This document shows positions 3,012 through 24,274 of a stretch of 47,561 bases of DNA, one piece after another. The position numbers were made by a program, and so were the translations under genes. The notes beneath the pieces were generated by a model. The model searched no databases, had not been told where the DNA came from, and saw only the letters and a program-made list of their open reading frames with translations. The stretch comes from a phage: the sequence record PZ324410.1, one strand, 5' to 3'. Each line of letters starts with the position of its first letter. The first letter of the stretch is position 1.

Positions 3012-4424
3012 ATGTCAAAAATCGACGCTTTAAACGCCTACATACGCGATCGCGTGGCGAACAATAACCGGGCGCTTCAGCAACAACGGCTTTGTGCTGG
3101 TGGGAAGAATCTGGACCAGAAACGTGAGTTCATGTGGAAGGAGTTGGGCTACCCGCAGGAAATCACCGCCGAGATGTTCCGCTATGCCTACGAGCGACAT
3201 CCAGCTGCAGCCGCTGGCATTAACCGCATTATTAATAAATGCTGGCAGAAATACCCTGAAGTGGTAGAAGATGGCGAGGATGACAAGAGTTCAACGCCGT
3301 GGGAGCTGTCCATCAACGACATGATGAAGCGCGCCTATCCGTTCATCAAGGAGGCTGACAAGCGCAATGCTATTAACCGCTATTCCGCTGTTATCCTGCA
3401 AATCCGTGACGGCAAGCAGTGGAGCGAGCCTGTTGACATCACCAAAACCCGCCGCATTAAAGATAAATCCATTGTTCGCTTTATTCCAGTGTGGGAAGAG
3501 CAGCTCCGTGTCAGTGCGTGGAATAACGACGAAACCAGCGAAGACTACGGAATGCCTGAGATGTACGAATATCAGGAAAGCGCCGTAGAGGATTTCGACA
3601 GCGACGGCAAGCCTGAGCGTTCCGTGCAGATTCACCCTGACCGTATCATCATTCTGGCTGAGGGTAGTTTTGATGGTAGCATGTTCAGTGGCATCCCGAT
3701 GTTGCGTGCTGGTTACAATAGCCTTATCGACATGGCTAAGGTTTCCGGTAGTTCAGCAGAAGGCTTCCTGAAGAATGCCAGCCGTCAACTGGCGGTAAAC
3801 TACACGAAGGATAACGTAACGCCAGCAAGTCTTGCGCAGTCGATGGGTGTCGATATTGAAGAACTTACCGACATTATGAATGAGAACATTGAGGCGTTAA
3901 ACTCAGGCATCGACGCCGCTATGTTCACAATGGGTGCGGATGCAAAAGTTCTCGCTGTGACTCCAGCTGACCCGAAGCCAACATGGGAGGTAGCCGCCAA
4001 CCAGTTCGCCGCATCAATGGCGCTTCCGTTCACCGTCATATTTGGGCAGCAGACCGGGCGCCTTGCAAGCGACGAAGACAAGATGCAGGAGGCGATGACC
4101 GCCAAGCAACGTCGAGAAACGTGGGTTGACTATGTTATTTCAATGTTCGTTGAGCGCATGATTCAGTTCGGCATTGTCGATAAAGCCCCGGAAAATGGCT
4201 ACAAGGTTAAGTGGGATGACCTGCTTGCTCCTTCAGAACTAGATAAAGCTGAATTGCTGGCTAAACTCGCCACTGCGAACAAATCGTTCTTTGATGCTGG
4301 TCAATCTGCGTTGCTGAGCGTCGATGAAGCGCGCGGCATGGTTGGTATGGACCCGATTGAACTCGACGAAACCTACCGCGAAGACACGCCGCCGGAAGAC
4401 GAAAATGAAGATACTCCGGTTTAA
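3012..4424 (+). CDS. portal protein
   Basis: 470-aa ORF with acidic C-terminus downstream of terL; position and size typical of siphovirus portal. Confidence 0.75.
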
Positions 4425-5358
4425 TGCAAGGCTACCCCAACCGCGCATATCGCAGAGTCTGACCGACCCGTTAGGTGCTGCAACCCGACTGTCGAAGATG
4501 GATAAGGTGATAACGCGCAAATACAAACAACTCAGGACTAGTGCGCTTGAGTTGTTTCGCACCATTCCGCATACTCAGACTAACGCAGAATCAAGTGGCC
4601 TGTATTTCTACGATTTCAGTAGTGCGCGTGCTGCTACGTTCATGGATGAGCTACAAGCGCTGATTGACGAGATTCTGCTGGAAGGTGACGACTTCGGTCA
4701 CGGCAGGATGTGGGCTAATGTGTTCATTGGTGATGCATATCAGGCCGGAACGCAGAAGGCCAACTCAGAACTATCAAGTCTGTCTCCGGTTTACGCCGAA
4801 CAGAGGCCGATTGCCGCGATACTCTACAGTGAGCCATATCTGAATCGGCTGCGGCTTGCGTATACGGCTGGTTACTCGGACTGGCGTGGGTTGAGCGATT
4901 ATTCCCGTCAACAACTGGCATCTGTCATTATGGAAGGCATTGCCCGGGGTGCTAATCCTCGCGATGTTGAGGCTGACATCATTAAGCGTGTCGATGTGTC
5001 TCACAGCTACGCGAAACAGATAGCGCAGACTGAAATCACCGGAACGCTGCGACAGGCTAACAGGCGGGAAGTCATTGAGGCGCGCGAGGAATTGGGAATT
5101 GAAACGGTGATGCTGTGGCAATCGGCATTATTACCTGGTCGAACGAGATTTACTCACGCGGCACGGCACGGGCGGTTTTACACGCCAGAGGAGATTGATA
5201 CGTTCTATAGTGAAGTTGCTAATCGCAGGAATTGTCATTGCTCTCAGAGTCCAGCATTGCTAATGGACGGTAAGCCTGTAATTTTGGAATCAAGCCAAGA
5301 GCGTCTAGATAGGCAAAGGGAATCATGGGAAAAGGTAAACAAGAAGAAAGCTAAATGA
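4405..5358 (+). CDS. head morphogenesis protein (Mu F / SPP1 gp7-like minor head protein)
   Basis: ORF 4324..5358; start set to ATG at 4405 overlapping portal end; start uncertain (alternative ATG 4498). Confidence 0.6.
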
Positions 5359-5364
5359 TATAAT
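5356..5364 (+). promoter_or_regulatory. extended -10 promoter element TGaTATAAT
   Basis: exact TGnTATAAT upstream of HNH gene, followed by hairpin gcccgg...ccgggc. Confidence 0.35.
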
Positions 5365-5455
5365 TTACTTGCAGCAAAGGGTAGCTCCCTGCCCGGATTG
5401 GTCTCCGGGCTGCTGCATACAACCAACAGACCATCCTTATGACCGAGGAGTAAAA

Positions 5456-6007
5456 ATGAAATCAATAAATCGCAATAAAATGCCTTCATTGGCTCGCCTT
5501 TCACACCTATTCATCATTTCCGCCGATGGAACAATCAAGCGCAGAATGGCTGCTGGCAATAGGGCGGCAGGAAGTAACGCAGAAAGGAATTTATGTGGTA
5601 GTGACTATACATGCATAACTGTTGATGGTGTTAGGTATCTCACCCATAGGGTTATTTGGTATTTTTTTACTGGTGAGGAACCTGATTACCTTGATCACAT
5701 AAATAGAAACAAAAAGGACAACAGGCTATGCAACTTGAGACCAGTGTCCGCCACGGGAAACAGAAGCAACACTGATTTGATGAACAGCAATACAACTGGA
5801 TATATTGGCGTTTATTGGTATCACTACAAAGGAACTCCTAGGTGGAGAGCTGCTTGCAACGATAAACATCTTGGATATTACCGTTCGCTTGTATCAGCAG
5901 TAAAGGCATACAATCGTTATGTGATAAGTGTTTATGGGGATGAAGCATTAGCAAAGGTTGAGCATAATAAGAGGATGATCAAAGAGTCTTTTGGCATTGA
6001 ACTGTAG
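5456..6007 (+). CDS. HNH homing endonuclease (HNH + AP2-like domain)
   Basis: motifs HRVIW...LDHINRNKKDNRLCNLRPVS...GYIGVYWYHYKG; GAGGAG RBS before ATG 5456; paralogous to three other ORFs in the window. Confidence 0.7.
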   Translation: MKSINRNKMPSLARLSHLFIISADGTIKRRMAAGNRAAGSNAERNLCGSDYTCITVDGVRYLTHRVIWYFFTGEEPDYLDHINRNKKDNRLCNLRPVSATGNRSNTDLMNSNTTGYIGVYWYHYKGTPRWRAACNDKHLGYYRSLVSAVKAYNRYVISVYGDEALAKVEHNKRMIKESFGIEL

Positions 6008-6013
6008 CCAACA

Positions 6014-6042
6014 AAAAGCCCTCTAAGTGAGGGCTTTGATTT
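6014..6042. terminator. stem-loop terminator between convergent genes
   Basis: aaagccctc taagt gagggcttt hairpin with A/T runs on both sides. Confidence 0.55.
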
Positions 6043-6113
6043 ATCTTATCAGCATGCACAGAACAAATATTATTATCGCATAGCACAATATCTCTACGAC
6101 GCTGAATATTGTT

Positions 6114-6728
6114 TTAATCCTCCAGCTTCACGCCTGGAATTTTACCAATCTCAATCGCCTCAATGATTCTTTCAGCCAACCCAATGTATCCTTCTGCGCC
6201 TTTTGGGTTGCCATAATAATAAAAAATAGTCTCTACCATATCGTTAACCATGGCATCGCGCTTCTTGTCTGCTTCTGAGCGGAGTGGGCGGAATTCACAT
6301 AGCTTATCACTGAAGTAAACTGCATGCCGATCATAATTCCATCCGAATGCAAATCCATCGTGATTAGCAATGATGTCAACAGGAATAAAATAACCAACCG
6401 CATCTTGCATCTCACACTCACACCCAACCGGAGGCAGGCCTTCGCCATTCCATGTGGGTTTCTGCGATGCTGCGAGTGCGGATTCGTATTGGTCGCGGGT
6501 TACGATTGATTCTGCATTGTCACATGATAACCAATCGTCATCATCAAATAGAAAGTATCCAGATAAGCCTCTTCCGCTTATGTGTCCCCATCCAAATCCG
6601 TTGTATTTTGGGTCATCGTACTTCCAGCAACATAAATAACCGTCACTATTTTGCGTTACAGACACCCAGTTTTCACGCCATCCACCACGCTTGGGTAATT
6701 CACGCACTAACAAGTCGATAAGTTTCAT
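6114..6728 (-). CDS. hypothetical protein (204 aa, Trp/Gly/Cys-rich)
   Basis: long ORF with stop/start coupling to neighbours; no family recognised. Confidence 0.55.
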   Translation of the reverse strand: MKLIDLLVRELPKRGGWRENWVSVTQNSDGYLCCWKYDDPKYNGFGWGHISGRGLSGYFLFDDDDWLSCDNAESIVTRDQYESALAASQKPTWNGEGLPPVGCECEMQDAVGYFIPVDIIANHDGFAFGWNYDRHAVYFSDKLCEFRPLRSEADKKRDAMVNDMVETIFYYYGNPKGAEGYIGLAERIIEAIEIGKIPGVKLED

Positions 6729-6740
6729 TGGTTTTCTCCA

Positions 6741-6956
6741 TTAATAATTTGGCTTTACGTCTTTCATCGTTAGCGGCTTCCATCCGCTTGCTATCGCAAT
6801 TTCAATGCAATCCTCAAGCGTTTTGGCTTTTATTGGTTCGCCAACTTCACTATCATCAAATTTTCTCTGTATTTGATAGCCATCTACGACGTAAAGAATC
6901 TCCACAGAGCCATGCAGTGTATGCATCGACTCAAGCCATTGCAGGTGGTAGCTCAT
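6741..6956 (-). CDS. hypothetical protein
   Basis: 71-aa ORF in co-directional minus cluster. Confidence 0.45.
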   Translation of the reverse strand: MSYHLQWLESMHTLHGSVEILYVVDGYQIQRKFDDSEVGEPIKAKTLEDCIEIAIASGWKPLTMKDVKPNY

Positions 6957-7309
6957 TTTGCTTCTCCCAACGCCTTATTAACCGCCGCACGCGCATTATC
7001 AAGAGCGCGACGCTTGCTTGATGTTGTCCATACTTTGCCGGATTGGTCGTCGTAGATTTCCAGTAACTGCTGGAGTGCTGACAGCAGGTCTGGTGATGCA
7101 GCCATTAAATTAAAATCATGCTCTACACTACCGTCAAGCTCCCAGTGCATTCCGTTGTATTTAGCGCCCTTACTTGAGAAAATGATATTCCTGTCATCAT
7201 CCTCGTGACAACCAGGAGTGTCGTCACTGCGGCAAACTGGATAAATTGCTGCGCAGCCTCCGCGAATGTCTGCAACCCACGGGCCTTTCGTGCCTTTAAA
7301 CTCTTTCAT
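6953..7309 (-). CDS. hypothetical protein
   Basis: ORF 6953..7321 trimmed to ATG at 7309 (MKEFKGTKGPW...). Confidence 0.5.
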   Translation of the reverse strand: MKEFKGTKGPWVADIRGGCAAIYPVCRSDDTPGCHEDDDRNIIFSSKGAKYNGMHWELDGSVEHDFNLMAASPDLLSALQQLLEIYDDQSGKVWTTSSKRRALDNARAAVNKALGEAK

Positions 7310-7317
7310 TACCAACC

Positions 7318-7458
7318 TCACTTAACATACTCAACAATTTCACACTCACGCATCTGCACCAGACCAAATGGCGCGACCAGCTTTCCGCATTTCATAACTT
7401 TGATCTGAGACAAATCGAATGCGGCGGTTTGTCCGGTGGTGAATTTTATGATTGCCAT
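7318..7458 (-). CDS. hypothetical small protein
   Basis: 46-aa ORF hand-translated (MAIIKFTTGQ...); below ORF-track cutoff. Confidence 0.3.
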   Translation of the reverse strand: MAIIKFTTGQTAAFDLSQIKVMKCGKLVAPFGLVQMRECEIVEYVK

Positions 7459-7519
7459 TATTCTGCGCTCCATATTGACCACCCATCTTTTTGCCAGTCA
7501 TGGCCCTTGTACCAATCGG

Positions 7520-7645
7520 TCATGTTGTAGCCCATTTCACAACCATGACGCCATTATGCATTTCAAAAAACTCATCACTGGTAAATCCCTGCGCCTTAAC
7601 TCTTTTCCCAGACTTCATTGCCTCGACAGCTTCTTCGTAAGTCAT
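7520..7645 (-). CDS. hypothetical small protein
   Basis: 41-aa ORF (MTYEEAVEAMKSG...); GAGGG RBS; first gene downstream of minus promoter. Confidence 0.35.
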   Translation of the reverse strand: MTYEEAVEAMKSGKRVKAQGFTSDEFFEMHNGVMVVKWATT

Positions 7646-7676
7646 ACCAAAACCCTCACTCGTTATTGATGTAGAT

Positions 7677-7705
7677 ACTATGCGCGACAATCCAATCTAC
7701 GTCAA
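7677..7705 (-). promoter_or_regulatory. sigma70-like promoter TTGACG-N17-CATAGT on minus strand
   Basis: read on reverse complement; -35 inside atctacgtcaa repeat. Confidence 0.4.
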
Positions 7706-7713
7706 TAGCTATG

Positions 7714-7722
7714 TGATAAAAT
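7714..7722 (+). promoter_or_regulatory. extended -10-like element TGaTAAAAT upstream of lysis cassette
   Basis: TGnTAnnnT-type element about 25 nt before endolysin ATG. Confidence 0.3.
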
Positions 7723-7745
7723 AATCTACATCAGGAGGTGAATTC

Positions 7746-8180
7746 ATGAAACTATCGCAACGCGGCATCGATTTAATTAAACAATTCGAGGGTTGCAGCT
7801 CGAAGGCGTATCCAGACCCCGCAACCGGAGGTGCGCCGTGGACTATCGGCTATGGCACAACCAAAGGCGTTAAGCCAGGAATGACCATCACCGCTGAGCA
7901 GGCTGAAAAGATGCTGCGCGATGATGTGGCTAAGTTTGAATCTGGCGTTTCTGCATTACTAAAAGTTCCGACCACGCAGGGGCAATTCGACGCAATGGTC
8001 TCGCTGGCATACAACATTGGCCTTGGTAATTTTGGCAAGTCAACACTGCTACGCAAGCATAACGAGAAATGCTATAGCTGCGCCGCTGGTCAATTCCCCG
8101 TATGGAATCGCGCTGCTGGCAAGGTTATGAATGGCCTGACCCGGAGGCGTAACGCAGAGCGCGACGTTTACATGTCATGA
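7746..8180 (+). CDS. endolysin, GH24 (T4-type) lysozyme
   Basis: FEGCSSKAYPD...WTIGYGTT catalytic Glu/Asp/Thr pattern; no N-terminal SAR/TMD. Confidence 0.8.
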   Translation: MKLSQRGIDLIKQFEGCSSKAYPDPATGGAPWTIGYGTTKGVKPGMTITAEQAEKMLRDDVAKFESGVSALLKVPTTQGQFDAMVSLAYNIGLGNFGKSTLLRKHNEKCYSCAAGQFPVWNRAAGKVMNGLTRRRNAERDVYMS

Positions 8181-8416
8181 AACGCCTCAGCAACTGGCTG
8201 CTCGGCGGGTGGATTTCGGTCTGCTCGCTGCTGCAAATCTGGCCTGAGTCGATGCTTTACGTGTGGGGTATGATGCCGGATGACCTGAAATCGGCGCTGC
8301 CTCCATTCGCTGTAAAGACTATCAGCTACTCCATTCTGCTACTCTCCATGCTCGGCAAGATGCATGCGATGAACAAGGCGAATAAGAGGTTGCGCGATGA
8401 TAAACCTGATTCGTGA
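8177..8416 (+). CDS. holin-like small membrane protein
   Basis: 79 aa, two hydrophobic segments and charged C-terminus; overlaps endolysin stop and spanin start. Confidence 0.5.
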   Translation: MKRLSNWLLGGWISVCSLLQIWPESMLYVWGMMPDDLKSALPPFAVKTISYSILLLSMLGKMHAMNKANKRLRDDKPDS

Positions 8417-8888
8417 TTACTGGCGACCACTGGCAATTATTATAATTGTTGCGTTCTGCGCGCTATGGGTGCGTAGTGAAATCATTGACTACGGCGACCA
8501 GCGATATGATGCCGGATACGCCAAAGCCATTGCCGAACAAAAAGAGGCAGATAAACGAGAGGAGCAACGCCGTGACGCAGAGAAACAAAAGATTCAGGCC
8601 GATGCGCAGCAAAGGATTGATGTTGCGCGCCGCGATGCTGCTGATGCTGCCGCTCGTGCTGATGGGGTGCGCAGAGAAACGGACAGGATACGCCAGCTCG
8701 CAGAGCAATATACCGGAACTCAGTCCGCTAGCGTATCAACCAGAAAGGTCATCGGTATGCTTGCCGAACTGTACGAAGCGAGCGAACGAGATTACCTTGC
8801 AGCGTCAACAGAAGCTGACAGGTATTACAACGCTGGATTGAGTTGTCAGCTTCAGTACAATTCATTGCGCAATAAAAAAGCCCCATAA
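8397..8888 (+). CDS. i-spanin (Rz-like)
   Basis: N-terminal TMD LAIIIIVAFCALWV followed by charged coiled-coil region; follows endolysin. Confidence 0.7.
   Translation: MINLIRDYWRPLAIIIIVAFCALWVRSEIIDYGDQRYDAGYAKAIAEQKEADKREEQRRDAEKQKIQADAQQRIDVARRDAADAAARADGVRRETDRIRQLAEQYTGTQSASVSTRKVIGMLAELYEASERDYLAASTEADRYYNAGLSCQLQYNSLRNKKAP
8602..8841 (+). CDS. o-spanin (Rz1-like lipoprotein), embedded in +1 frame of i-spanin
   Basis: signal peptide with lipobox LVLMGC; entirely inside 8397..8888 in another frame; start chosen at Met 22 residues before Cys. Confidence 0.6.
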   Translation: MRSKGLMLRAAMLLMLPLVLMGCAEKRTGYASSQSNIPELSPLAYQPERSSVCLPNCTKRANEITLQRQQKLTGITTLD

Positions 8889-8902
8889 AGGGGCTTTGTT
8901 TT
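8876..8902. terminator. rho-independent terminator
   Basis: aaaagcccc ataa aggggcttt hairpin then TTTT. Confidence 0.6.
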
Positions 8903-9050
8903 AAAGGTCATCAAGCCTGTCGACAATCTTGCTTCCGGCGCTCTCAAGGTCTTTATCATCAAAGCCATCAGCCCACGCCTGCTTGATACACTCCATTACC
9001 TGATTAAGCTCACCCTCAGTGAACTCAACAACATACTTTTTCTCTTCCAT
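8901..9050 (-). CDS. hypothetical small acidic protein
   Basis: ORF 8901..9146 trimmed to Met with GAGAGAGAA RBS. Confidence 0.4.
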   Translation of the reverse strand: MEEKKYVVEFTEGELNQVMECIKQAWADGFDDKDLESAGSKIVDRLDDL

Positions 9051-9294
9051 TTCTCTCTCGCTCATACAGTGGTTTAATTTCATACCCAAACATCTGCGCA
9101 TTCTCATACTCAACACTGCCAGCAAATACCAGGTAACGCTTGCCACGATTGTCGGTGACGATGTAGGCTACTGGCTCGCGCGCAAATCGTTTGTGTACTG
9201 GCGACTCTGATGGTGTAGCAATCTCGCCAATAATAAATGTATTTATTGAATCAATCACGCCGCCAGTTTTAAATGTCACTTTGCGCCTCCACAA
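9025..9294 (-). CDS. hypothetical protein
   Basis: 89-aa ORF in minus cluster. Confidence 0.45.
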   Translation of the reverse strand: MWRRKVTFKTGGVIDSINTFIIGEIATPSESPVHKRFAREPVAYIVTDNRGKRYLVFAGSVEYENAQMFGYEIKPLYERERNGREKVCC

Positions 9295-9544
9295 TCCGCA
9301 CCAGTGAACACTCCAGCTTCGGTGCTACATAATTACCCGCGAGGAAATACGTGCTGCCAGTGCTGATAATCACAGGCTTTCCGGCATGCAGCGAAAGGTT
9401 CTGCACGATAAACTCTGCGGTAGCGGTGCTGATTTCTAACACTGCATCGCCGTCACGATTGAGTGATACCAGCTTTGCGGATGGGTCGGTTACATTTGTG
9501 TAATCGGAGTTGCGTTGTGCGATTGTAATGTCGGTGAATGCCAT
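9269..9544 (-). CDS. hypothetical protein
   Basis: 91-aa ORF; stop overlaps neighbour. Confidence 0.5.
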   Translation of the reverse strand: MAFTDITIAQRNSDYTNVTDPSAKLVSLNRDGDAVLEISTATAEFIVQNLSLHAGKPVIISTGSTYFLAGNYVAPKLECSLVRIVEAQSDI

Positions 9545-9759
9545 TAAAATTTCTCCATTCCGCCTTTACTGACGATTTTATTTACCTTGGTGATAAGTTC
9601 GATTGCTTGCTGAATTTCAGCTGGGGAAAACACCCCAGCAGAATATTCAACTTTAACGCCATCTCCAGCCATCTCGATTGAGATATGCTTTGTCGACATT
9701 TTGCACGCGAATCCGTTGCACTCAAAATGACCAGACAAATGTAATTTGCAATCTGCCAT
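9544..9759 (-). CDS. hypothetical protein
   Basis: 71-aa ORF; ATGA-type coupling with flanking genes. Confidence 0.5.
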   Translation of the reverse strand: MADCKLHLSGHFECNGFACKMSTKHISIEMAGDGVKVEYSAGVFSPAEIQQAIELITKVNKIVSKGGMEKF

Positions 9760-10301
9760 TATTTGATCTCTCCATTCAATTCATCTGCGATAAGTTTTGA
9801 GTAACCAGCGATATCCTTCCAGTTATCATCGTATGCCGGGTCGCCATTCAGGATGCGACCGATTTTGTGCTGAATCATGTCCAGCGCTTCGCGTTGGCTA
9901 TCAGTTAATCGTGACCATCCATCAGTATTGTGCATCACTCCTTTTAGTGAGCGCATGATTTTAGCGCCATCAGCGAATTTACCGTAACGATTGCCACGCT
10001 CATTGACCAGTGATTCGATATCAACTTTCGTCGGGTCGTATTTGACCACCTCGACATCTGCGGCGGTAACTGGTTCGCGTTGGGCGATAATCTCATAACG
10101 ATAACCTTCATTAAATGCAACGCCGTCACGGTTTTCGTCGCCAATATCGCAAACATGGATCCGTCTACCAACGACGCCGACAAATGAATGCTTGCTAGTC
10201 CATTCCCCTTTAATTCTCCTTGTTACCCAATCCGGCGCGCCTTCAAAATCCCTCTCACTGCCTTTCAGGTATTTCCATGCTTTCTTGCATTCACTCATCA
10301 C
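9759..10301 (-). CDS. hypothetical protein (180 aa)
   Basis: long ORF in coupled minus operon; family not recognised by eye. Confidence 0.55.
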   Translation of the reverse strand: MMSECKKAWKYLKGSERDFEGAPDWVTRRIKGEWTSKHSFVGVVGRRIHVCDIGDENRDGVAFNEGYRYEIIAQREPVTAADVEVVKYDPTKVDIESLVNERGNRYGKFADGAKIMRSLKGVMHNTDGWSRLTDSQREALDMIQHKIGRILNGDPAYDDNWKDIAGYSKLIADELNGEIK

Positions 10302-10498
10302 TCACCTCTTAATGTCACTTTATTGTTTTCGTCAACGTTAAAATTAGCCCTGATGTACTCATACATCTCTTCTTTGCTCATATCAGCAAGCTCGACATAG
10401 CATCGCGCAAAGTAACGCACATCACGCAGACTAAGAGGCTGTCTTTTCTTCACGATTGCTGTCACTACTTCACTCTTCTCTCGGCGCGGTCTTGGCAT
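10298..10498 (-). CDS. hypothetical protein
   Basis: 66-aa basic N-terminus; first gene of minus operon next to repeat-bearing intergenic region. Confidence 0.5.
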   Translation of the reverse strand: MPRPRREKSEVVTAIVKKRQPLSLRDVRYFARCYVELADMSKEEMYEYIRANFNVDENNKVTLRGE

Positions 10499-10595
10499 TT
10501 CTTACTCTCCTTTAGAAAACATCTTGACTTAATCTACGTCAATCGTCAATACTTGTTGATGTAGATTGTATCACAAAGAAAAGAGGTGATGTGGA

Positions 10596-10793
10596 ATGAC
10601 TCTTGAAGAGATGATTAATGAACGTCATGAGCAGGTTGAATCGCTCATTAAAAATAAATGCGATGGCGAGACTATGGAAACTGTGAAATGGATTGTCAAA
10701 TGGTCCATGAAACAAGCTCACTCGCAAGGTAAGGTAGATTATGCTCACGAAGATTTACCGGAGATTTTACGTAATCATCCCGGTCCATTTTGA
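10596..10793 (+). CDS. hypothetical protein
   Basis: AAGAGGTGATG RBS region before ATG; first plus-strand gene after divergent region. Confidence 0.5.
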   Translation: MTLEEMINERHEQVESLIKNKCDGETMETVKWIVKWSMKQAHSQGKVDYAHEDLPEILRNHPGPF

Positions 10794-10873
10794 AGAAGAT
10801 GGCTATGTGTGCGTTAAGCATGAAATCATCAAATATTACGGCAGAAATTACATTAAATTGATGGAGAGAAAAA

Positions 10874-11068
10874 ATGACAACTAACGAATGCTACGAACAA
10901 TCAATTATCGCACGACTAAACGAAGTAGACCGCACCCGCGACTGGCTTGAGTGTGAATTACGCGAAGTGCGCAACAGGATTCAGTGCAGTAATAGTCAGA
11001 AGAAAGACATTATCGACTGGTCTGGTGACAGGCCGAAGTTTAACAATATTGGGGAGTGGGTAGAATGA
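10874..11068 (+). CDS. hypothetical protein
   Basis: 64-aa ORF; GGAGAGAAAAA upstream of ATG. Confidence 0.5.
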   Translation: MTTNECYEQSIIARLNEVDRTRDWLECELREVRNRIQCSNSQKKDIIDWSGDRPKFNNIGEWVE

Positions 11069-11283
11069 GAAAGCAAAGCACTATAGCTGATTTGGTACTT
11101 GCTGATTTTAGAGAGCAGAGCGCAAGAAATAAACGGCACAAAAACCAGAATGACAACAGAACTTCCATGCAGTGGCTGAAAGATAACTTTGGCAAGAAAT
11201 CGCACAAATACAGAAGGGATAGAGTTTTGCTGATGCTCATTAATTTAAACATGAAGGCAACTATTGCGAGGTTGATGAAGTGA
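11065..11283 (+). CDS. hypothetical basic protein
   Basis: ORF 11056..11283 trimmed to ATG 11065 overlapping previous stop. Confidence 0.45.
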   Translation: MRKQSTIADLVLADFREQSARNKRHKNQNDNRTSMQWLKDNFGKKSHKYRRDRVLLMLINLNMKATIARLMK

Positions 11284-11522
11284 CAGCGCCACATATGCCG
11301 ATGATGAATGGCGAAGGGGTTTTAGAGTGCCCATTATGCCAAGCAACAATAGCTCATGCAGATACCATTGATGGCGAGTGGATTGTTGAATGCTATGAGT
11401 GTGGATGCAGAACTGGTGCTTACATGACCGATAAAGGAGCCATCGAGTCATGGAACACCCGCAACGGACACCTCTACACACCAGAAGACTTCAAACAGGC
11501 AGGTCAGGAGCGAGATTTATGA
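11280..11522 (+). CDS. Lar-family restriction alleviation protein
   Basis: two Cys pairs CPLC...CYECGC and C-terminal AIESWNTR motif typical of Lar family; start may be GTG 11280 or ATG 11295. Confidence 0.55.
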   Translation: MTAPHMPMMNGEGVLECPLCQATIAHADTIDGEWIVECYECGCRTGAYMTDKGAIESWNTRNGHLYTPEDFKQAGQERDL

Positions 11523-11821
11523 CTGGTCGCGAAATTGTTATTAATTACTTCAAGAATCACAAATCAGGAACCCTCCAGCAGATATGCGATTCGCATAGGT
11601 CGCCATTTGCGGTATATGCCAAAGTAAGTTGCGCGCTTCATGATATGCGAGTGCGCGAGGAAGTGAAACTTAGCGGTAAGGTTTACGAGATAGAAGAATC
11701 TATCGGCGTCGACAACATCAAGGTTAAACCATTAACTATCCGCTGTCATAGCTACGTGCCAAAGCAGCATTTCGGCGGCAATAATTACCTGACACAGCTG
11801 CTTCGTGCGGTGCGTGGATGA
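11519..11821 (+). CDS. hypothetical protein
   Basis: ORF trimmed to ATG overlapping previous stop (ATGA). Confidence 0.45.
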   Translation: MTGREIVINYFKNHKSGTLQQICDSHRSPFAVYAKVSCALHDMRVREEVKLSGKVYEIEESIGVDNIKVKPLTIRCHSYVPKQHFGGNNYLTQLLRAVRG

Positions 11822-12210
11822 GGTGGTTAGTGAAACACAAATCAGGCCGCGTTTTATTCGTCACCAGTGATAAGTTTATCGCGGAAAATCGCAGAAAGAT
11901 GGGCTGGATAGTGGAGAAAGTTAAGATGACGAGCAGAGAGCAGTTTGAAAAGTGGGTTAGCGAAAAGCTGTTCCCTGGTATTCATTTTGCATTCCTTGAT
12001 AATGGCGAATATGTGAATACCATCATTCAGCAGCGATGGGAAGCATGGCAGGAATCACGCGCAGCTATTGACATTGAGCAGCCAGAATTTATTGATTCTC
12101 GATCGGTTCTGGATAAAGGTTACATGGTTGATTACTCAAATGGATTTGGTGATGCGATGGATGCATTTGTACAAGCAATCGAACAAGCAGGATTAAAGGT
12201 GAAGAAATGA
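11818..12210 (+). CDS. hypothetical protein
   Basis: 130-aa ORF, coupled string. Confidence 0.5.
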   Translation: MRWLVKHKSGRVLFVTSDKFIAENRRKMGWIVEKVKMTSREQFEKWVSEKLFPGIHFAFLDNGEYVNTIIQQRWEAWQESRAAIDIEQPEFIDSRSVLDKGYMVDYSNGFGDAMDAFVQAIEQAGLKVKK

Positions 12211-12533
12211 TTATTCCACTGAATGAAATTATGACGGCAGATATCAATGAACTGGATGATATGGATATGCAGCTCGCATATGAAATTGAGTGCATTGAAC
12301 GTCAATTGCAGCATCCTGACAAGGACGCTAAAACATGGCGAGAGAGGGCAATGAAGGCGCGTAACCATATGAAACGTACTCGTGCACTGGTTCGTACTCG
12401 ACTGGATAAACTGTACTACGGTGAAGACCGCCTTCTGCATGGCGTTATCCTTGCTGAGGTGCGTAAAACAATGTCAGTTGGTCGATTCATGGAACTGGTC
12501 CATAAGGCTAAACGCAATGCGGGGTTGGTGTGA
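12207..12533 (+). CDS. hypothetical protein
   Basis: 108-aa ORF, basic C-terminal half. Confidence 0.5.
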   Translation: MIIPLNEIMTADINELDDMDMQLAYEIECIERQLQHPDKDAKTWRERAMKARNHMKRTRALVRTRLDKLYYGEDRLLHGVILAEVRKTMSVGRFMELVHKAKRNAGLV

Positions 12534-12715
12534 TGCGCAAGTATCAGTGCTACAGGTGCGGGGAGTCAAAGGATTGGTACAGATTTAATCCTGGTCAAAA
12601 ATATTGGATTAGAAAGTGTATTCGCTGCGAGCAATCGCCAGTGGGGTCAATGCCGGTTAGACAGGATTCATCTCACGTGTTTCATAGTCGCAAGATAATG
12701 AGGGTATGCAAATGA
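12533..12715 (+). CDS. small zinc-ribbon-like protein
   Basis: CYRCGE...CIRCEQ Cys pairs; GTGATG overlap with previous stop. Confidence 0.45.
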   Translation: MRKYQCYRCGESKDWYRFNPGQKYWIRKCIRCEQSPVGSMPVRQDSSHVFHSRKIMRVCK

Positions 12716-12858
12716 TTCCATTACTATGGATTACCGGAGCATACGCATTCTGTCGAGTGCTTAATGCCGATTCGCTTACTCACGTTGCTGCATATGGATT
12801 GCTTTTCTGCATGACTGGCGCGTTGCTTGCCTTCGCAGATGACGTTTTATCAGACTAA
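12712..12858 (+). CDS. small membrane peptide
   Basis: 48-aa hand-called ORF, hydrophobic; ATGA overlap. Confidence 0.3.
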   Translation: MIPLLWITGAYAFCRVLNADSLTHVAAYGLLFCMTGALLAFADDVLSD

Positions 12859-12912
12859 TCTATTACATACATTTAACGCATGGCTGCTACCATCAAATCT
12901 GGAGGTGCAGCC

Positions 12913-13035
12913 ATGTTCATAACTCAAATCATATTCTTCCTTTCACTTTCTGCCATCTATCCTTCCATTCTGTATCCTCTCGCCACGCTGTCGTGGTGCT
13001 TTATTGCTCTGTGGTATAATTCCGACACGAGCTAA
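12913..13035 (+). CDS. small membrane peptide
   Basis: 40-aa hand-called ORF with strong GGAGGTG RBS. Confidence 0.3.
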   Translation: MFITQIIFFLSLSAIYPSILYPLATLSWCFIALWYNSDTS

Positions 13036-13050
13036 CCGTGGAGCTATGCA

Positions 13051-14804
<1,754 letters not shown>

Positions 14805-14806
14805 TA

Positions 14807-15877
14807 ATGGAAAAGATTATTTTTACCAAAGACCTGGTAGCCAACTCCGCAGTGGTGGCTGACCAGTGGAAACATCTGACCATCGACCGCAAGGTGTTCT
14901 GCAATGCAGAAGCTGAACTGGCGAAAACATACGGTGTTAACGCCACCGCACTGGTAACGAAAGATTACTGGCGCGACGTGGATAACGTCACCACCCGCGT
15001 TTTCCGTAACGAAGCTGGTCAGGACATGATGGCTGACCTGATGGGTATCGCGGCAAACATCAATATCGGTAAGACTGTGGCAGTCAGCCGCATCGCTTCC
15101 GATGCCGGTAAGGTGGTCCGCACCCTGTCTGGTCAGGAGCCGGAAGATTTGGACAAAACTCGCTATGATTACACTGGCGATGTGATTCCAATCTTCAAGA
15201 CTGGCTACAGCCGTGAATGGCGTGAACTGCTGGGTATGCAGTCTGAAGGTTTTGACCCACTGCTGGACGATCAGGCTAACGTCACCTTTAACCTGCGTTC
15301 CGACATGGCGCAGTATCTGCTGACTGGCGACCAGACCCTGAACGTGAACGGCGTTTACACTGGCTACGGTATCACCAACCACCCGAACACTGTTCAGGTT
15401 AACCTGAGCACTTCCCCCGGCCTGAACATTGACCTGCAAACCGCAACGCCAGACGAAATCGTGAAATTCTTCAATCAGGATTTCCAGGCTATTCTGGATG
15501 CGCAGAACGTATTTGAGCAGGTGACTCTGTGGGTTTCCCCGGCAGTGCGTCGCAGCTTCATGCGCCCGTATTCTGATGCGGCTGGCTTCAAAGGTGGTAC
15601 TGTTGAGCAGTACATCACGCAGTTCGGCAATGGTCGCATCGGCAAGATTGGCACCAACTTCCTGCTGACAGGCAACCATTTCGTTGGCTATGTTCGCAAC
15701 GACATGTACATCCGTCCGCGTGTTGCTCAGCCTGTTTCCACCTATGCGGCTGCCCGCGCCAACCCGCACGATAACTTTAACTTCCTCGTGTGGTCAGCTT
15801 TTGGCCTGCAAATCCGTAAGGATTTCACTGGTAAGTCCAAAGTGTTCAACGGCTACGGTACGCAAACTCCGCTGTAA
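14807..15877 (+). CDS. major capsid protein
   Basis: 356-aa ORF in lambda E-like position; strong terminator follows. Confidence 0.75.
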   Translation: MEKIIFTKDLVANSAVVADQWKHLTIDRKVFCNAEAELAKTYGVNATALVTKDYWRDVDNVTTRVFRNEAGQDMMADLMGIAANINIGKTVAVSRIASDAGKVVRTLSGQEPEDLDKTRYDYTGDVIPIFKTGYSREWRELLGMQSEGFDPLLDDQANVTFNLRSDMAQYLLTGDQTLNVNGVYTGYGITNHPNTVQVNLSTSPGLNIDLQTATPDEIVKFFNQDFQAILDAQNVFEQVTLWVSPAVRRSFMRPYSDAAGFKGGTVEQYITQFGNGRIGKIGTNFLLTGNHFVGYVRNDMYIRPRVAQPVSTYAAARANPHDNFNFLVWSAFGLQIRKDFTGKSKVFNGYGTQTPL

Positions 15878-16150: not shown

Positions 16151-16690
16151 CTACAGACGCATCGGCATAACAACAATCTTCGCAGTCTCGCCAGATGGCG
16201 CACTAAGGCAGCAAACTGCTGCATTTGTATTTCCATTCAGTTCAAATTTGACACCACAGAATTTAGGATTAAACAGCTTCGCCACTTTCTCAATATCAAC
16301 AAGGTAGCCAGTATTGAATCCTATTTCCTCTGCTGCTTTCGTTTCCTTTGGTATCACGCGGTCAATATCGGGGAATCGACCATCAATCTCTTCGCAGATA
16401 CCAGCGCCAACCATCGCGCCAGCTTCATCATGATACGTTGCAATTTTCGACCCGGTATCAATGATGGCGTGCTCATAGCGCTTTGTTGGTGACTTGCCAA
16501 TCTTGATAATCACATTTTCCGTCAGCTTATTATCATGGACTCCGCCAATGAATGCACGATGGCCGTCAGTTGACGCAATGCGACCATCAGTCATAAAGCA
16601 GATGCCGTTCAGGTAGTATCGCACATCATTACGAGCCTGAAATATCAATGCTGACTCAAGTAATAGTTTGCTGATTTTTAGTTTCATCAC
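16151..16690 (-). CDS. truncated DNA polymerase III beta sliding-clamp homolog
   Basis: translation contains DVRYYLNG, TDGHR, DGRFPDxxRVxPK, EIGFN and C-terminal VVMPMRL, matching landmarks of the C-terminal two thirds of bacterial DnaN; about half normal length. Confidence 0.6.
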   Translation of the reverse strand: MMKLKISKLLLESALIFQARNDVRYYLNGICFMTDGRIASTDGHRAFIGGVHDNKLTENVIIKIGKSPTKRYEHAIIDTGSKIATYHDEAGAMVGAGICEEIDGRFPDIDRVIPKETKAAEEIGFNTGYLVDIEKVAKLFNPKFCGVKFELNGNTNAAVCCLSAPSGETAKIVVMPMRL

Positions 16691-16860
16691 TTCACCTTAA
16701 TCATGTGTTGTTTTGCAACCTTTAGGCATTCCTCAAAAATGCCACCCTTCTTAGTGCTCTGGTTTCGCTTGTAATACTGGATTGCCGCATCAATTGCCAT
16801 CTGGTCAATGTCAGGCAGCTTGTCACGAAGTTGTTTTTCGATGAATTGCTCAGCGTTCAT
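16687..16860 (-). CDS. hypothetical small protein
   Basis: ORF trimmed to ATG 16860 overlapping upstream stop. Confidence 0.4.
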   Translation of the reverse strand: MNAEQFIEKQLRDKLPDIDQMAIDAAIQYYKRNQSTKKGGIFEECLKVAKQHMIKVK

Positions 16861-17222
16861 AGGACCAACCACTTAGCTGGAATGATGTATCGAACTTCCG
16901 ATTCTGTTAAACCTAAGTCCATGCATATACTATCCACACTTTTCTGTGCAGGGTAATTTCGAGAGAAGTAGTTCCCCATCCACTCTCTAAGGCCTGTAAA
17001 GCATGGTATGTCATCGAAATCTGAGATGTCAGATGCAGCATTGAATGCCTTACTACATATCAAGCATTGTTTATAGGAAAACGCATCTCTTTCCGATGAT
17101 ACTCCTGATGAATACTTATATTTATCTCCTTTGTGTATTTCTCTTCCACACTCGCAGCATTTATGGCTCTTGATAGCTTTTCTTTCTATTTGTCTGAAAG
17201 CAAGTGGCTGTTCACCCATCAC
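16857..17222 (-). CDS. zinc-ribbon protein
   Basis: CCECG and CLIC Cys pairs in 121-aa ORF. Confidence 0.5.
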   Translation of the reverse strand: MMGEQPLAFRQIERKAIKSHKCCECGREIHKGDKYKYSSGVSSERDAFSYKQCLICSKAFNAASDISDFDDIPCFTGLREWMGNYFSRNYPAQKSVDSICMDLGLTESEVRYIIPAKWLVL

Positions 17223-18028
17223 ATCTTCTCCAGAATTGCCATGACCTCGTGAATATCAGCAACAGGAATCTGGATAAATTCCTCATCCTCTGCCACCACA
17301 TGACCAGCAGGGAGAATCACATGGTCAGCTGGCTTCAATAACTCAATCAGGCGGTCTACTGGCTTAATCTTTTTCGACTTCAGCACCTTTGCTGTGACTT
17401 TGTCCTTGCCTTGCGCCCTCGCTTCTTCTACCGCCTCGTCGATAACTTTTACTGCATCATCTCCATGTTCGCGCGTTACCGCTACGGCATTTGCATAGCT
17501 GATTTGTCCTGCACTGATGCGCGCTTTTACTTCCGCTGGAACATCACCCAGCGACAGATGCATTTGCACGTCAGATACTGAGCGGCCTACCTTTTTGGCA
17601 ATTTCTTCATTCGTCCAGCCAAAACCCTTCAGTCGCGTGTAAGCCTTTGCGCGTTCAAACGGGTCGAGTTGCTTGCCCTGACTGGATGACACCATGAAGG
17701 CGATTTTGTCAGCCTCGTCGCCAGTGAAATCCTTGCACTCAATGCGAACGATTGGTGCTCCGCGCTCAATGGCACGCAATGCGCCGAGATAGCGGTGCTG
17801 ACCATCAAGAATGCGGATTCCCTTCTCATCTGGAATAACTGTTAATGCTGGCAGTGGCTGTCCTGATTCCCAGCACTGCGCGAAATATTCAACGTGTTGC
17901 TCATCTGCTTCACGGATGTTATATCCAGGCTCCAGATAGATTTGCTCCACTGGCACGAGATAGGTTTTGTTCACAGCGATTCCGTTGCGCGTTTCTTTGT
18001 CTGAATAGATTTTGCTTAGTGTTTTCAT
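17219..18028 (-). CDS. ParB-like nuclease domain protein
   Basis: LDGQHRY-type ParB N-terminal motif plus predicted HTH segment (EEIAKKVGRSVSDV). Confidence 0.6.
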   Translation of the reverse strand: MKTLSKIYSDKETRNGIAVNKTYLVPVEQIYLEPGYNIREADEQHVEYFAQCWESGQPLPALTVIPDEKGIRILDGQHRYLGALRAIERGAPIVRIECKDFTGDEADKIAFMVSSSQGKQLDPFERAKAYTRLKGFGWTNEEIAKKVGRSVSDVQMHLSLGDVPAEVKARISAGQISYANAVAVTREHGDDAVKVIDEAVEEARAQGKDKVTAKVLKSKKIKPVDRLIELLKPADHVILPAGHVVAEDEEFIQIPVADIHEVMAILEKM

Positions 18029-18225
18029 TTAACTCTCGCCTCCATCATTCTTTCTGCGATAAGGTAAGCATGTTCAGCCTTCTCGCCATAACCCATATTT
18101 GGTGATGTAATTAATAGAGATTGCATTGCTTTTGCGGCAAAGTAATCACGTAGCGTTGCATCAGAAGCCATTTCTTGTCGCTTAACGTCATAATCAATAA
18201 ATTCATCTTTCATATCATTCACCAC
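18025..18225 (-). CDS. hypothetical protein
   Basis: 66-aa ORF, coupled. Confidence 0.45.
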   Translation of the reverse strand: MVNDMKDEFIDYDVKRQEMASDATLRDYFAAKAMQSLLITSPNMGYGEKAEHAYLIAERMMEARVK

Positions 18226-18406
18226 TTTCTTCTAACAATTGCTCGTAATATGCGACGTACTCATTGGCAAGATAGTACAGGCGCTCAGCAGACTTGCGTT
18301 CTGAATTACTTAAGTCATCAATAGACTCAATGTTGCCAATTGCATCAACACAATCATTGAAGTCTTGCTCCGTGTTACGAAATCGACAGTAGGACATGTT
18401 TGCCAT
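18215..18406 (-). CDS. hypothetical protein
   Basis: 63-aa acidic ORF. Confidence 0.45.
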   Translation of the reverse strand: MANMSYCRFRNTEQDFNDCVDAIGNIESIDDLSNSERKSAERLYYLANEYVAYYEQLLEESGE

Positions 18407-18408
18407 GA

Positions 18409-19032
18409 TTATTCCTCATCACCAGAATTAGCAATATCGTAAAACTGACCGTAGGTTATCTGCTTAAAGTTATCAGGTATCGTTACCTGTCCGTGACCTT
18501 CATCTTTTGTATTTGGCACGGCAAAAATCAGGCAATCATCCTTTTGCGGGTGTTTGCCGCCATAAGTAGACAGCATTGCAAAACCAAATCCGCGACCTGA
18601 TTGCTCGCCAATGCCTGTGCGTGCGATGCCGTAATGATTAACAATGTAGTCTTTCCATTCTGGCAATAACTTTAATTTCTCGTTTGCCTCGCGAATCACT
18701 GCGTCCAGCTTTTTGTTGTATTCTCGCCCGTCTTTTGTGTTACCCTTACCGCGAGCCACAATTACACGCTGACCTTCCCAAAAGTCTTCTCGCTTTATTG
18801 TCACTTGGCACGGAAATTCAAACTGCTTACTCCACACAAAACTCTCAAGCAAGCCACCACCAACAGCACCCCAACTGCGCGTTGTGGTAAATGCGATAGC
18901 ACCAACCTTTTTCATGGCATCGCCGAGAATTTCATTGCGGCGCTTTTGGATGTCGTCATATGCGTTAATAACTTTCTTAACATCAGCACCTTCAACCATG
19001 TAATAATCATAATGTTTTGCGTTACTGCTCAT
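18409..19032 (-). CDS. hypothetical protein (207 aa)
   Basis: ORF 18409..19050 trimmed to Met with GAGGTG RBS; first gene after promoter 19074..19102. Confidence 0.55.
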   Translation of the reverse strand: MSSNAKHYDYYMVEGADVKKVINAYDDIQKRRNEILGDAMKKVGAIAFTTTRSWGAVGGGLLESFVWSKQFEFPCQVTIKREDFWEGQRVIVARGKGNTKDGREYNKKLDAVIREANEKLKLLPEWKDYIVNHYGIARTGIGEQSGRGFGFAMLSTYGGKHPQKDDCLIFAVPNTKDEGHGQVTIPDNFKQITYGQFYDIANSGDEE

Positions 19033-19073
19033 CTTCATCACCTCTAACATTTATTGTTGTTTCTACGTCACTA

Positions 19074-21537: not shown

Positions 21538-21614
21538 TGGTGGACACGGACGGATTTGAACCTTCAATCAGCCGATTATGAGTCGGTTGCTTTAACCAAT
21601 TAAGCTACGCGTCC
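21538..21614 (-). tRNA. tRNA with CAU anticodon (Met or Ile2), CCA encoded
   Basis: hand-folded on minus strand: 7-bp acceptor stem GGACGCG/CGTGTCC, D-arm GCTT-AATTGGTTA-AAGC, anticodon loop CUCAUAA, T-loop GGTTCAAATCC; one mismatch each in anticodon and T stems. Confidence 0.6.
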
Positions 21615-22021: not shown

Positions 22022-22687
22022 TTAAATCAAGCCTTCGTCAGTTAGCTTGCCGATAATCCACATCTCTCCTTCAGCATAAAACATAGCTTGTGAGTGCCCT
22101 GTTTCTGTCTCGCGCATAATGCCGTATCCTTTGTCGATGAACCATTGCTGGAAGACTCGTCCACGCTTAACAGAGCGATTGTACACATCGAATTGCTCAA
22201 GCTGTCTGTTTAGCCATACTGCTGACTGTCCAAACTTCTGTGCAACCTGTGTTGCATTGTAAAGATTGTTTCGCTCAACGATGCGATCATAGACATCTGC
22301 TTTTGGTGCCATCTCCTTGTTTTCAAGCGCAAGCTTCTCTTTCTCTTTCTCTGAGGCAAGTAATGCCTCCAGTGCTTCAATATAGTTTTGCGGAAGATTT
22401 GGCTTGCTAACCTGCGATTCCAGTTCTTGCCATCGTCTAATGATGGCAGCGCGCATTTTGATGCTATATCCTGACACCAGAATTAATGTTTCCTCCTTAT
22501 CCAAAAGAAGCATTTGATACGTGCGCCCTCTGCTGTCTTTGTAATCTCCTAACTTTTCAGGAGATTGAATTTCAGCTAACATTTTTCGTATGTCAGCCAA
22601 AACATTGTCATGCCGTTTCCCTGTCAACTCCGAAATCTCACGGCTTGACATGGTTTGCACTTTACCAACATTCATTAATGCGTTCAT
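22022..22687 (-). CDS. Rha/ORF6N-type phage regulatory protein with KilA-C-like C-terminal domain (antirepressor-like)
   Basis: N-terminal SSREISELTGKRHDNVLADIRKM motif; coiled-coil linker; C-terminal KilAC-like segment. Confidence 0.55.
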   Translation of the reverse strand: MNALMNVGKVQTMSSREISELTGKRHDNVLADIRKMLAEIQSPEKLGDYKDSRGRTYQMLLLDKEETLILVSGYSIKMRAAIIRRWQELESQVSKPNLPQNYIEALEALLASEKEKEKLALENKEMAPKADVYDRIVERNNLYNATQVAQKFGQSAVWLNRQLEQFDVYNRSVKRGRVFQQWFIDKGYGIMRETETGHSQAMFYAEGEMWIIGKLTDEGLI

Positions 22688-23543: not shown

Positions 23544-23551
23544 TAAAGAAA

Positions 23552-23577
23552 AAGCCCCGAAAGGGGCTTTGTTTTAT
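23552..23577. terminator. bidirectional rho-independent terminator
   Basis: aaagcccc gaaa ggggcttt hairpin then TTTT. Confidence 0.6.
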
Positions 23578-23917: not shown

Positions 23918-23930
23918 AGTCTTTATCACC

Positions 23931-24203: not shown

Positions 24204-24274
24204 AAACGCCTCAATCTACATCAGCATAATGTTAATCTACACCACGGCGGCGCAACCTGTCAAATGATTGTGAG

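Follow-up and report, generated by a model that had tools for sequence, protein, structure and literature searches.

The sequence PZ324410.1, which we refer to as the window and which was analysed over its whole length of 47,561 nucleotides, is a complete siphophage genome (∼47.5 kb) of the Skatevirus type, and the subject of this analysis is the region (positions 6114-13035) in which the genes for its head are parted, between a MuF-like head-morphogenesis gene and a scaffold gene, by about 7 kb of lysis genes and small genes on both strands. We propose that this region represents a clade-wide split head module in which a conserved regulatory frame holds the lysis genes and houses an exchangeable cargo of small genes, and we regard this as the probable explanation of its organization. 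The layout itself is the normal one throughout the Skatevirus-like and Roufvirus-like siphophages and is not an insertion specific to this phage.

In the arrangement that we propose, four transcription units would part a head module of the ES18 type between MuF and scaffold, giving the order terminator T1, leftward cluster A, divergent region D1, rightward lysis genes, terminator T2, leftward cluster B, divergent region D2, and a rightward cluster C that runs into the remaining head genes. The frame would consist of D1, D2, T2, the lysis genes, and the genes for B6, C3, Lar, C8 and the DUF6378-domain protein (genes are numbered within each cluster by increasing position), while the remaining genes would be cargo. 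The cargo would be swapped by homologous recombination between conserved frame elements, and this could be helped both by the RecE/RecT-like genes that are annotated in the relatives Bas77 and seszw and by homing endonucleases for which the cluster slots are landing sites. The benefit of the cargo would depend on the host and might lie in counter-defence, superinfection exclusion or host modulation.

The divided head module and its distribution

The left head genes of the window are terL (1-1425), the portal gene (3012-4424) and the MuF-like gene (4324-5358, plus strand; phrog_758, expect value (E) 1e-112), which is the left anchor of our comparisons. The right anchor is the 428-amino acid (aa) scaffold/protease-like gene of the ES18 gp7 type (13051-14337, plus strand; phrog_760, E 1e-147, with a weak match to DUF2213), followed by the decoration gene (14337-14804) and the gene for the major capsid protein (MCP; 14807-15877). 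The MuF gene ends 7692 bp before the scaffold gene starts, and between the two lie a gene for an HNH homing endonuclease, cluster A, the endolysin, holin and spanin genes, cluster B, and the plus-strand cluster C; terL and portal are spaced by 1.6 kb. A first-pass annotation of the window had described head genes that are separated by two antisense clusters (6114-7645 and 8901-10498), a lysis cassette, and plus-strand genes including Lar, and we confirm both these coordinates and the content. Its inventory is correct for the clusters and left the HNH gene (5453-6007) unmentioned, and its "eighteen or so" small plus-strand genes come down to about 11 in our analysis of gene content, which used open reading frame (ORF) lists together with PHROG and Pfam searches.

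From IMG/VR we retrieved 72 loci in which the 428-aa protein has a homologue, and we mapped the proteins of the window by tblastn onto 78 loci, 64 of which contain the MuF, endolysin and scaffold genes. All 64, Skatevirus-like and Roufvirus-like alike, are collinear on the same strands, with the common order portal, MuF, cluster A (minus), endolysin, holin, spanin, cluster B (minus), cluster C, scaffold, decoration and MCP, and with a distance from MuF to scaffold of 4664-8173 bp (median 7069). The same arrangement is annotated in Bas77, HC6, seszw, the type phage Skate, and the Roufvirus-like Klebsiella phage BUCT610, the MCP of which is 79% identical to that of the window. In the ES18-like phage Oslo and in Sinorhizobium phage phiLM21, the homologous head genes are contiguous on a single strand and scaffold-like homologues come directly after MuF or portal; the MuF protein of the window is 32% identical to that of Oslo, where the gene directly adjoins the scaffold-like gene. 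Because 64 of 64 loci are collinear while these distant ES18-type modules are contiguous, the split is, as far as gene order tells, a derived trait that is fixed in the whole clade. The description of the head genes as "interrupted" by a local event in this phage is contradicted by the same 64 loci. A universal and conserved gene order with known housekeeping roles for the proteins had been named as what would speak against host-takeover or anti-defense loci; the comparison of loci did reveal the universal order, which is the first half of that test only.

The closest annotated relatives of the window are HC6, 6947, Bas77-79, Akira, LPST10, IME207, Skate and Sf11, with nucleotide identities of 88-91% over ∼50-60% of the first 20 kb. 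For the MCP, identity is 95-99% with 156 records, HC6, seszw and VSt472 among them, and 79% with those of Roufvirus-like Klebsiella phages. Bas77-Bas79 have been assigned to a Skatevirus cluster with Roufvirus as the outgroup (PMC11990801), and an initial idea that the phage might belong to the Jersey-like Guernseyvirinae was dropped because the BASEL paper places its relatives in that cluster (PMC11990801). The window matches Escherichia phage ECO95 1-6-1 (OR845258, an unannotated record) at 100% over the matched parts, and its positions 4980-14156 are 100% identical to a 9,177-bp GenBank record of Salmonella phage S.Kent 1-2-1; either one phage was recovered from two host genera or the records are linked through sample handling.

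The split region is one instance of a wider organization. Further along the window, minus-strand clusters at 16151-19050, 22022-22687 and 23396-24775 adjoin, downstream, the MCP, head-tail and major tail protein genes, and because these other leftward clusters also cut structural genes, such cutting is a genome-wide pattern. In relatives, the downstream leftward clusters carry RusA-like, methylase, ParB-like, anti-restriction and superinfection-immunity annotations; in the window, a ParB-like protein is encoded at 17219-18028. Some relatives have an extra gene of ∼300-340 aa between portal and MuF (L080:39821-40843, which is seszw gene 67; CPT_Skate_009 in Skate), which is deleted in reduced mutants of seszw and has no counterpart in the window, where the portal and MuF ORFs overlap by ∼100 nt. 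In a search against Rfam, no RNA family was found in the split region, and the sole hit in the whole window was a gene for the methionine transfer RNA (tRNA-Met, CAT; 21538-21614, minus strand, 63 bits) among the head-tail genes.

The frame and its candidate regulatory signals

The two divergent regions, D1 (7646-7745) and D2 (10499-10595), are conserved in both genera though the genes that adjoin them differ. In an alignment of 46 unique D1 sequences from 58 genomes (57 related loci and the window), the core TCAATCTACGTCAA...TGATAnAAT is kept in at least 90% of the sequences, and D2 is conserved across the two genera over its whole 95-bp region (52 unique sequences aligned, 90% consensus). 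Within D1 we predict a minus-strand promoter P_A (TTGACG, 17 nt, CATAGT) and a lysis promoter with an extended −10 element (TGaTAAAAT), and within D2 a putative P_C (TTGACT, 18 nt, AATACT) and, on the minus strand, a putative P_B with an extended −10 element (TGaTACAAT). A single start region near 10560 has the −10 element of P_B on one side and that of P_C on the other, and binding of polymerase to the two promoters may therefore be mutually exclusive.

The convergent junctions of the proposed frame each contain a hairpin that is flanked by A and T runs and is predicted to be a bidirectional terminator, namely T1 at 6015-6037 (AAAGCCCTC-TAAGT-GAGGGCTTT) and T2 at 8877-8897 (AAAGCCCC-TTTAT-GGGGCTTT). 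A T1-like sequence is present in 30 loci and T2 in 67 loci (median identity 94%), and in Skate a terminator is annotated at each of these two junctions. The earlier proposal that the antisense genes are coupled into operons with promoters of their own agrees with the overlaps of their start and stop codons and with the conservation of D1 and D2, while the promoters themselves are candidates identified by consensus-type matches and by conservation.

A 10-bp motif, ATCTACRTCA, is present in 11 copies in the window where 0.17 would be expected, at positions 1847, 1943, 7667 (minus), 7695, 7724, 10532, 10557 (minus), 19092, 22714, 24214 and 24792, and there are one-mismatch copies near 19031-19070, 24235, 24803 and 43489-43515. 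Short gaps that separate gene blocks hold most of the copies, namely after terL, in D1 with three (7667-7676 on the minus strand, 7695-7704 and 7724-7733 on the plus strand), in D2 with two (10532 on the plus and 10557 on the minus strand), and at 19092, 22714, 24214 and 24792. Bas77 and HC6 have the motif at the corresponding junctions, and its offset from the start codon of B6 is fixed in all 67 of 67 loci. It often stands right after a −10-like hexamer, and a TTGACG −35 box comes from its reverse complement. Since its copies coincide with −35, spacer or +1 positions and have no fixed orientation relative to transcription, the motif appears to suit a role as operator more than one as promoter element only, and it may be the operator set for some regulator. 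In the organization that we propose, the copies on core promoters would be operators or a conserved promoter element by which the units are coordinated genome-wide. The small genes had also been described as early-type, a label that we reject because the shared motif also lies just upstream of the gene for the major tail protein (motif at 22714, gene at 22827) and of the tail gene block that begins at 24871 (motif at 24792).

Turnover, dispensability and content of the slots

The content of the slots differs greatly between genomes. When the ORFs of slots A, B and C were clustered across 65 genomes they gave 116 cargo families, 87 of which are found in fewer than 10% of the loci. Slot A, with 46 families and none that is universal, is empty in a few relatives such as Vi II-E1; slot B has 30 families, of which those of B6 and the DUF6378-domain protein are universal; and slot C has 40 with about four universal. 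In Vi II-E1, B6 is the only B-cluster gene of the window that is detected by tblastn. The lysis unit and clusters B and C are present in 64 of 64 loci. The genes of the slots are thus exchanged frequently even among close relatives, and in this respect their content is accessory. The cargo of relatives includes mini-proteins that have signal peptides or appear to be secreted or membrane-bound, winged-helix proteins and HNH genes, and six relatives have a full-length Tad2-like gene in slot B, for example an 84-aa protein (L045:6133-6387, minus strand) that matches PF11195 over positions 2-73 (86 bits, E 2.6e-24).

The HNH gene of the window is that of a free-standing homing endonuclease (5453-6007, plus strand; phrog_99, E 4.5e-43), which has a promoter-like site at 5336-5364 and is placed between MuF and T1. 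It is absent from this position in Bas77 and HC6, and its homologues occupy various places in slots A, B and C of the relatives, which suggests that homing drives the exchange of the cargo that flanks it.

The relative seszw (Skatevirus, 45,881 bp, 81 genes) was genome-reduced with CRISPR libraries by Yuan et al. (PMC9825161), who reported that 53 of its 81 genes can be removed, that blocks 3-10 and 69-71 were lost spontaneously, and that the smallest mutant that they state was viable at 36,655 bp. We read dispensability from the deposited mutants seszw_10L (all 81 genes), 300L.2 (36,655 bp) and 290S (35,993 bp). Both 300L.2 and 290S lack homologues of A1 (40% identity), A2 (seszw gene 71), A3 (gene 72), B5 (51% identity), C3, C4, Lar (gene 6) and C7, together with several genes that are specific to seszw, and the homologue of B3 (gene 81) is lost from 300L.2 and kept in 290S. 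Those kept in both are the homologues of A4 (gene 73), B6 (gene 2), C8 and C10, a C1-like gene (gene 3) and the lysis genes. Judged from these homologues, most of the split region would be dispensable on the laboratory host. A4, B6, C8 and C10 behave more like core than like cargo, since they are retained in both mutants that were checked and B6 and C8 are in addition nearly universal.

The antisense ORFs are real genes, as is evident from their matches to PHROG families (most of them have one), the many clusters homologous to A1 and B5, the change in sign of the GC skew over both antisense clusters, and the overlaps at start and stop codons, by which neighboring genes within the clusters share 1-13 nt in a manner that fits translational coupling. 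Cluster A (6114-7645, minus strand) contains five genes. The 204-aa A1 (6114-6728) is predicted to have beta-strand regions and a C-terminal helical hairpin, and a structure model with a mean predicted local distance difference test (pLDDT) value of 82.8 suggests one or more SH3/Tudor-like beta-barrels before that hairpin. It has 2772 homologous clusters, which are unnamed and mostly on contigs of 46-48 kb, and a homologue by tblastn in 50 of the 78 loci. A2 (71 aa, 6741-6956) is rare cargo (3 of 78 loci by tblastn). A3 (122 aa, 6953-7321; phrog_1273) has a homologue that in many Roufvirus-like loci sits elsewhere, in the first leftward cluster downstream of the MCP gene, and A4 (46 aa, 7318-7458; phrog_21280, E 3e-21) is a conserved small protein. 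A5 (41 aa, 7520-7645), the first gene of the cluster, resembles part of the N-terminus of Tad2-like (DUF2829) proteins: its match to PF11195 (E 1e-3, 19.9 bits against a cut-off of 25) spans profile positions 1-31 of 73 and that to phrog_3474 positions 3-38 of 64, and A5 thus lacks a full-length Tad2 domain by this test, being below the cut-off with partial coverage. By tblastn a homologue of A5 was detected in none of the 78 loci.

Cluster B (8901-10498, minus strand) contains six genes, the first of which, B6 (66 aa, 10298-10498; phrog_14963), is found in 72 of 78 loci and has 30 invariant columns. The 180-aa B5 (9759-10301) combines a variable small beta domain at the N-terminus with a conserved three-helix C-terminal domain of the DUF6378 type, as also suggested by its structure model (pLDDT 74, predicted template modeling score 0.39), and nearly all of its 42 invariant residues are in the C-terminal domain. 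It matches phrog_17775 (E 3e-56) and reaches 24.8 bits against DUF6378 (PF19905), just under the cut-off of 27.1, and most of its 120 best homologues have a precomputed PF19905 assignment. B5 has 1472 homologous clusters, unnamed and again mostly on contigs of 46-48 kb, and a homologue in 50 of 78 loci by tblastn. The other genes are B1 (∼49-54 aa, 8901-9065, with a start at 9050 or 9065 by eye), which is rare cargo (6 of 78 loci); B2 (84 aa, 9025-9279; phrog_34266), with a GTG start at 9279 after GGAGG and present in 29 of 78 loci; B3 (91 aa, 9269-9544; phrog_16624, E 2e-39); and B4 (71 aa, 9544-9759), which is in 18 of 78 loci and gave no family hit in the PHROG and Pfam searches. Comparison of A1, B5, B6 and C8 with solved structures, by sequence and by profile, gave nothing significant (best E ∼0.05 or local chance matches), and NCBIfam had no match to any of ten cluster proteins, A1 and B5 included.

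The lysis genes between these two clusters, all on the plus strand, are those for a 144-aa endolysin of the lysozyme family (7746-8180; phrog_7, E 9e-59), a holin (8177-8416; phrog_13249, E 2.5e-44) and an Rz-like i-spanin (8397-8888; phrog_312, E 5.5e-39). An ORF embedded in another frame of the i-spanin gene (∼8602-8841, plus strand; translated as ORF 8446-8841, with an uncertain start) contains the lipobox LVLMGC and is consistent with a candidate Rz1-like o-spanin, and an o-spanin is annotated at the matching place in Skate.

Cluster C (10596-13035, plus strand) comprises about 11 small genes and continues into the genes for the scaffold, decoration and capsid proteins. C1 (10596-10793) is rare (2 of 78 loci) and is followed by the small gene C2 (10741-10884), the nearly universal C3 (10874-11068; 72 of 78 loci) and C4 (11056-11283; DUF7301). 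C5 (11280-11522) encodes the Lar-like zinc-ribbon protein (PF14354, E 5.3e-9, 36.6 bits against a cut-off of 28.6; phrog_599, E 1.5e-11), which is found in 72 of 78 loci and the translation of which contains two CxxC pairs (ECPLCQ...ECYECGC), that is, a four-cysteine zinc-ribbon motif. That Lar alleviates type I restriction should not be assumed, because related Skatevirus phages are reported to be markedly sensitive to restriction-modification (RM) systems (PMC11990801). In 61 relatives a MarR-like double winged-helix protein comes right after Lar, and at that position the window has the unrelated C6 (∼100 aa, 11519-11821), which is unique to this phage (tblastn finds a homologue in none of the 78 loci) and by eye resembles a single winged helix, an impression with no profile match behind it. 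The remaining genes are C7 (130 aa, 11818-12210; 46 of 78 loci), the nearly universal C8 (108 aa, 12207-12533; 73 of 78), the rare C9, or NinD (12530-12715; 6 of 78), C10 (12706-12858) and C11 (12880-13035).

Rival readings and comparison with known systems

Several other explanations of the region have to be weighed against the frame and cargo that we propose, and the one with the most in its favor is that clusters A and B are dedicated anti-defense islands, in which A1, B5 and their neighbors would be expressed early and inhibit immune systems. The highly variable content inside fixed slots, the dispensability of homologues on the laboratory host, the presence of Lar in the adjacent unit, the full-length Tad2-like gene in slot B of six relatives (PF11195, E 2.6e-24), the resemblance of A5 to the Tad2-like N-terminus, and the small binding-type barrels of which A1 appears from its model to be built would all suit this reading. 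On the other hand, none of the cluster A and B proteins of the window reaches the curated threshold for known anti-defense families, the match of A5 being partial and below cut-off; the universal presence and high conservation of the DUF6378 protein are unlike what inhibitors with a fast turnover would show; much of the cargo of relatives looks secreted, membrane-bound or DNA-binding; and the reported sensitivity of the group to RM systems and to Old argues against a broad protection (PMC11990801). As an account of both clusters we thus consider it possible but rather unlikely. An anti-defense role does stay plausible for some of the cargo, such as Lar and the Tad2-like genes, because relatives carry the latter in slot B, and clusters A and B of this phage would be candidates. 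The first-pass interpretation of the antisense genes as host-takeover or anti-defense candidates is in this sense partly supported: they are accessory and variable and their homologues are lost from viable mutants, while the searches with A1 and B5 returned no anti-defense function and the structure predictions that had been suggested for 6114-6728 and 9759-10301 did not lead to a function.

A different possibility is that the frame is a regulatory circuit of the whole phage that has not been described before, with ATCTACRTCA operators at seven or more units, mutually exclusive P_B and P_C, B6, C8 and A4 as regulators, and A1 and the DUF6378 protein as effectors, and we think this improbable; if it were true, the A1 (2772 clusters) and DUF6378 (1472 clusters) families would be new host-targeting or counter-defense effectors. 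Slightly more doubtful still is the reading in which the clusters supply early host-takeover or regulatory functions that are essential to every member of the group, and in which this need explains the conserved layout. In its favor are the universal layout, the presence of B6, C3, Lar, C8 and the DUF6378 family in nearly all genomes, the 30 invariant positions of 66 in B6, and the retention of the A4, B6, C8 and C10 homologues by both of the smallest seszw mutants, but viable mutants have lost the homologues of nine window genes (A1, B5, C3 and Lar among them), Vi II-E1 is naturally without slot A and has B6 as its only window B-cluster gene by tblastn, and no family of slot A is universal. 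A recent insertion or moron-type acquisition of the 7 kb, specific to this phage, is refuted by the comparison of 64 loci and retains next to no probability. It would account for the GC content of the region, which is lower than in the neighboring portal/MuF and capsid stretches and has the opposite skew, for the alignment of only ∼25% of the region to the nearest annotated relative (HC6/6947, at ∼78% identity), and for the HNH homing endonuclease at its left edge; yet the four-unit layout, the homologous anchors and the conserved intergenic regions are found in 64 of 64 loci from two genera, in which individual genes come and go and not the whole block. A moron that is present in some relatives and cleanly absent from others was likewise tried as a description and dropped, as the B, C and lysis units are in all 64 loci. 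With regard to a promoter and terminator of its own, as a moron would have, the region contains consensus-type promoter sites and two candidate terminator hairpins, and these are conserved in relatives.

Some observations also weigh against the division into a conserved frame and an exchangeable cargo. The line between the two is not sharp, because seszw can do without C3, Lar and the DUF6378 protein although these are present in nearly all genomes. Dispensability is itself read from homologues of 40-96% identity in another phage on one Salmonella host, and the burst size fell from 140 to 37 in a seszw mutant that had lost 20% of its genome (PMC9825161), and hence some of the deleted genes do matter. 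One metagenome supplied many of the 64 loci, and these cannot be counted as independent of one another. The structure predictions for A1 and B5 gave no specific match, Lar is the only cargo of the window with an assigned function, and the promoters, terminators and timing are predictions for every member of the group; a literature search found no transcriptome paper for this phage group and no transcriptome or defense-panel data for these genes.

The split head module with an internal lysis cassette can be taken as a signature of phages of the Skatevirus/Roufvirus type and not as an insertion or a misassembly. Such a layout is ordinary in this known group of phages, here with a cargo set of its own, and will not surprise a specialist in phage genomics. 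For engineering, the frame of promoters and terminators would mark natural slots in which cargo is tolerated in a lytic phage of 47 kb, a relative of which has already lost 20% of its genome. For discovery, small genes with a fast turnover, such as Lar and, in relatives, the Tad2-like gene, are gathered in the slots, which are thus a sensible place to screen for counter-defense or exclusion factors; the slots also house the very abundant A1 and DUF6378 families.

The closest likeness is with Skatevirus itself (the Salmonella phages Skate, MH321493, and seszw and the Escherichia phages Bas77-79), in which the order and strands from portal to MCP are the same, the MCP is at least 95% identical, the lysis cassette likewise lies between two leftward clusters with Lar in the rightward one, and Skate has its annotated terminators at the two junctions of T1 and T2. 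The window differs in that A5, C6 and the HNH gene at 5453-6007 have no counterpart at these positions, that A2, B1, C1 and NinD are rare, that the usual MarR-like gene after Lar is replaced, and that there is a single endolysin of 144 aa where Skate, seszw and Bas77 have two lysis enzymes. The terL, portal, MuF, scaffold, decoration and MCP proteins are homologous (28-44% identity) to those of the ES18-type module, represented by vB_SosS_Oslo/ES18 and by phiLM21, in which these head genes are contiguous on one strand, whereas in the window terL and portal are 1.6 kb and MuF and scaffold 7.7 kb apart. With respect to Tad2, the full-length family member is in slot B of six relatives and the 41-aa A5 of the window has the N-terminal motif only.

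Non-essential accessory regions are well known in other phages, as in the nin and ea regions and morons of lambdoid phages and the hyperplastic regions of T4, and like the slots of the window these have tiny coupled genes, a mosaic turnover, and genes that are dispensable in the laboratory. The likeness to the lambdoid nin/ea-type regions extends to individual genes, as homologues of NinD and Lar are present in the window as well. In contrast to these lambdoid and T4 regions, however, the slots described here are inside the head-gene block of a phage that is described as lytic in the literature on its group, two of them oppose the structural genes in direction, and the candidate promoters and terminators at their boundaries are strongly conserved.

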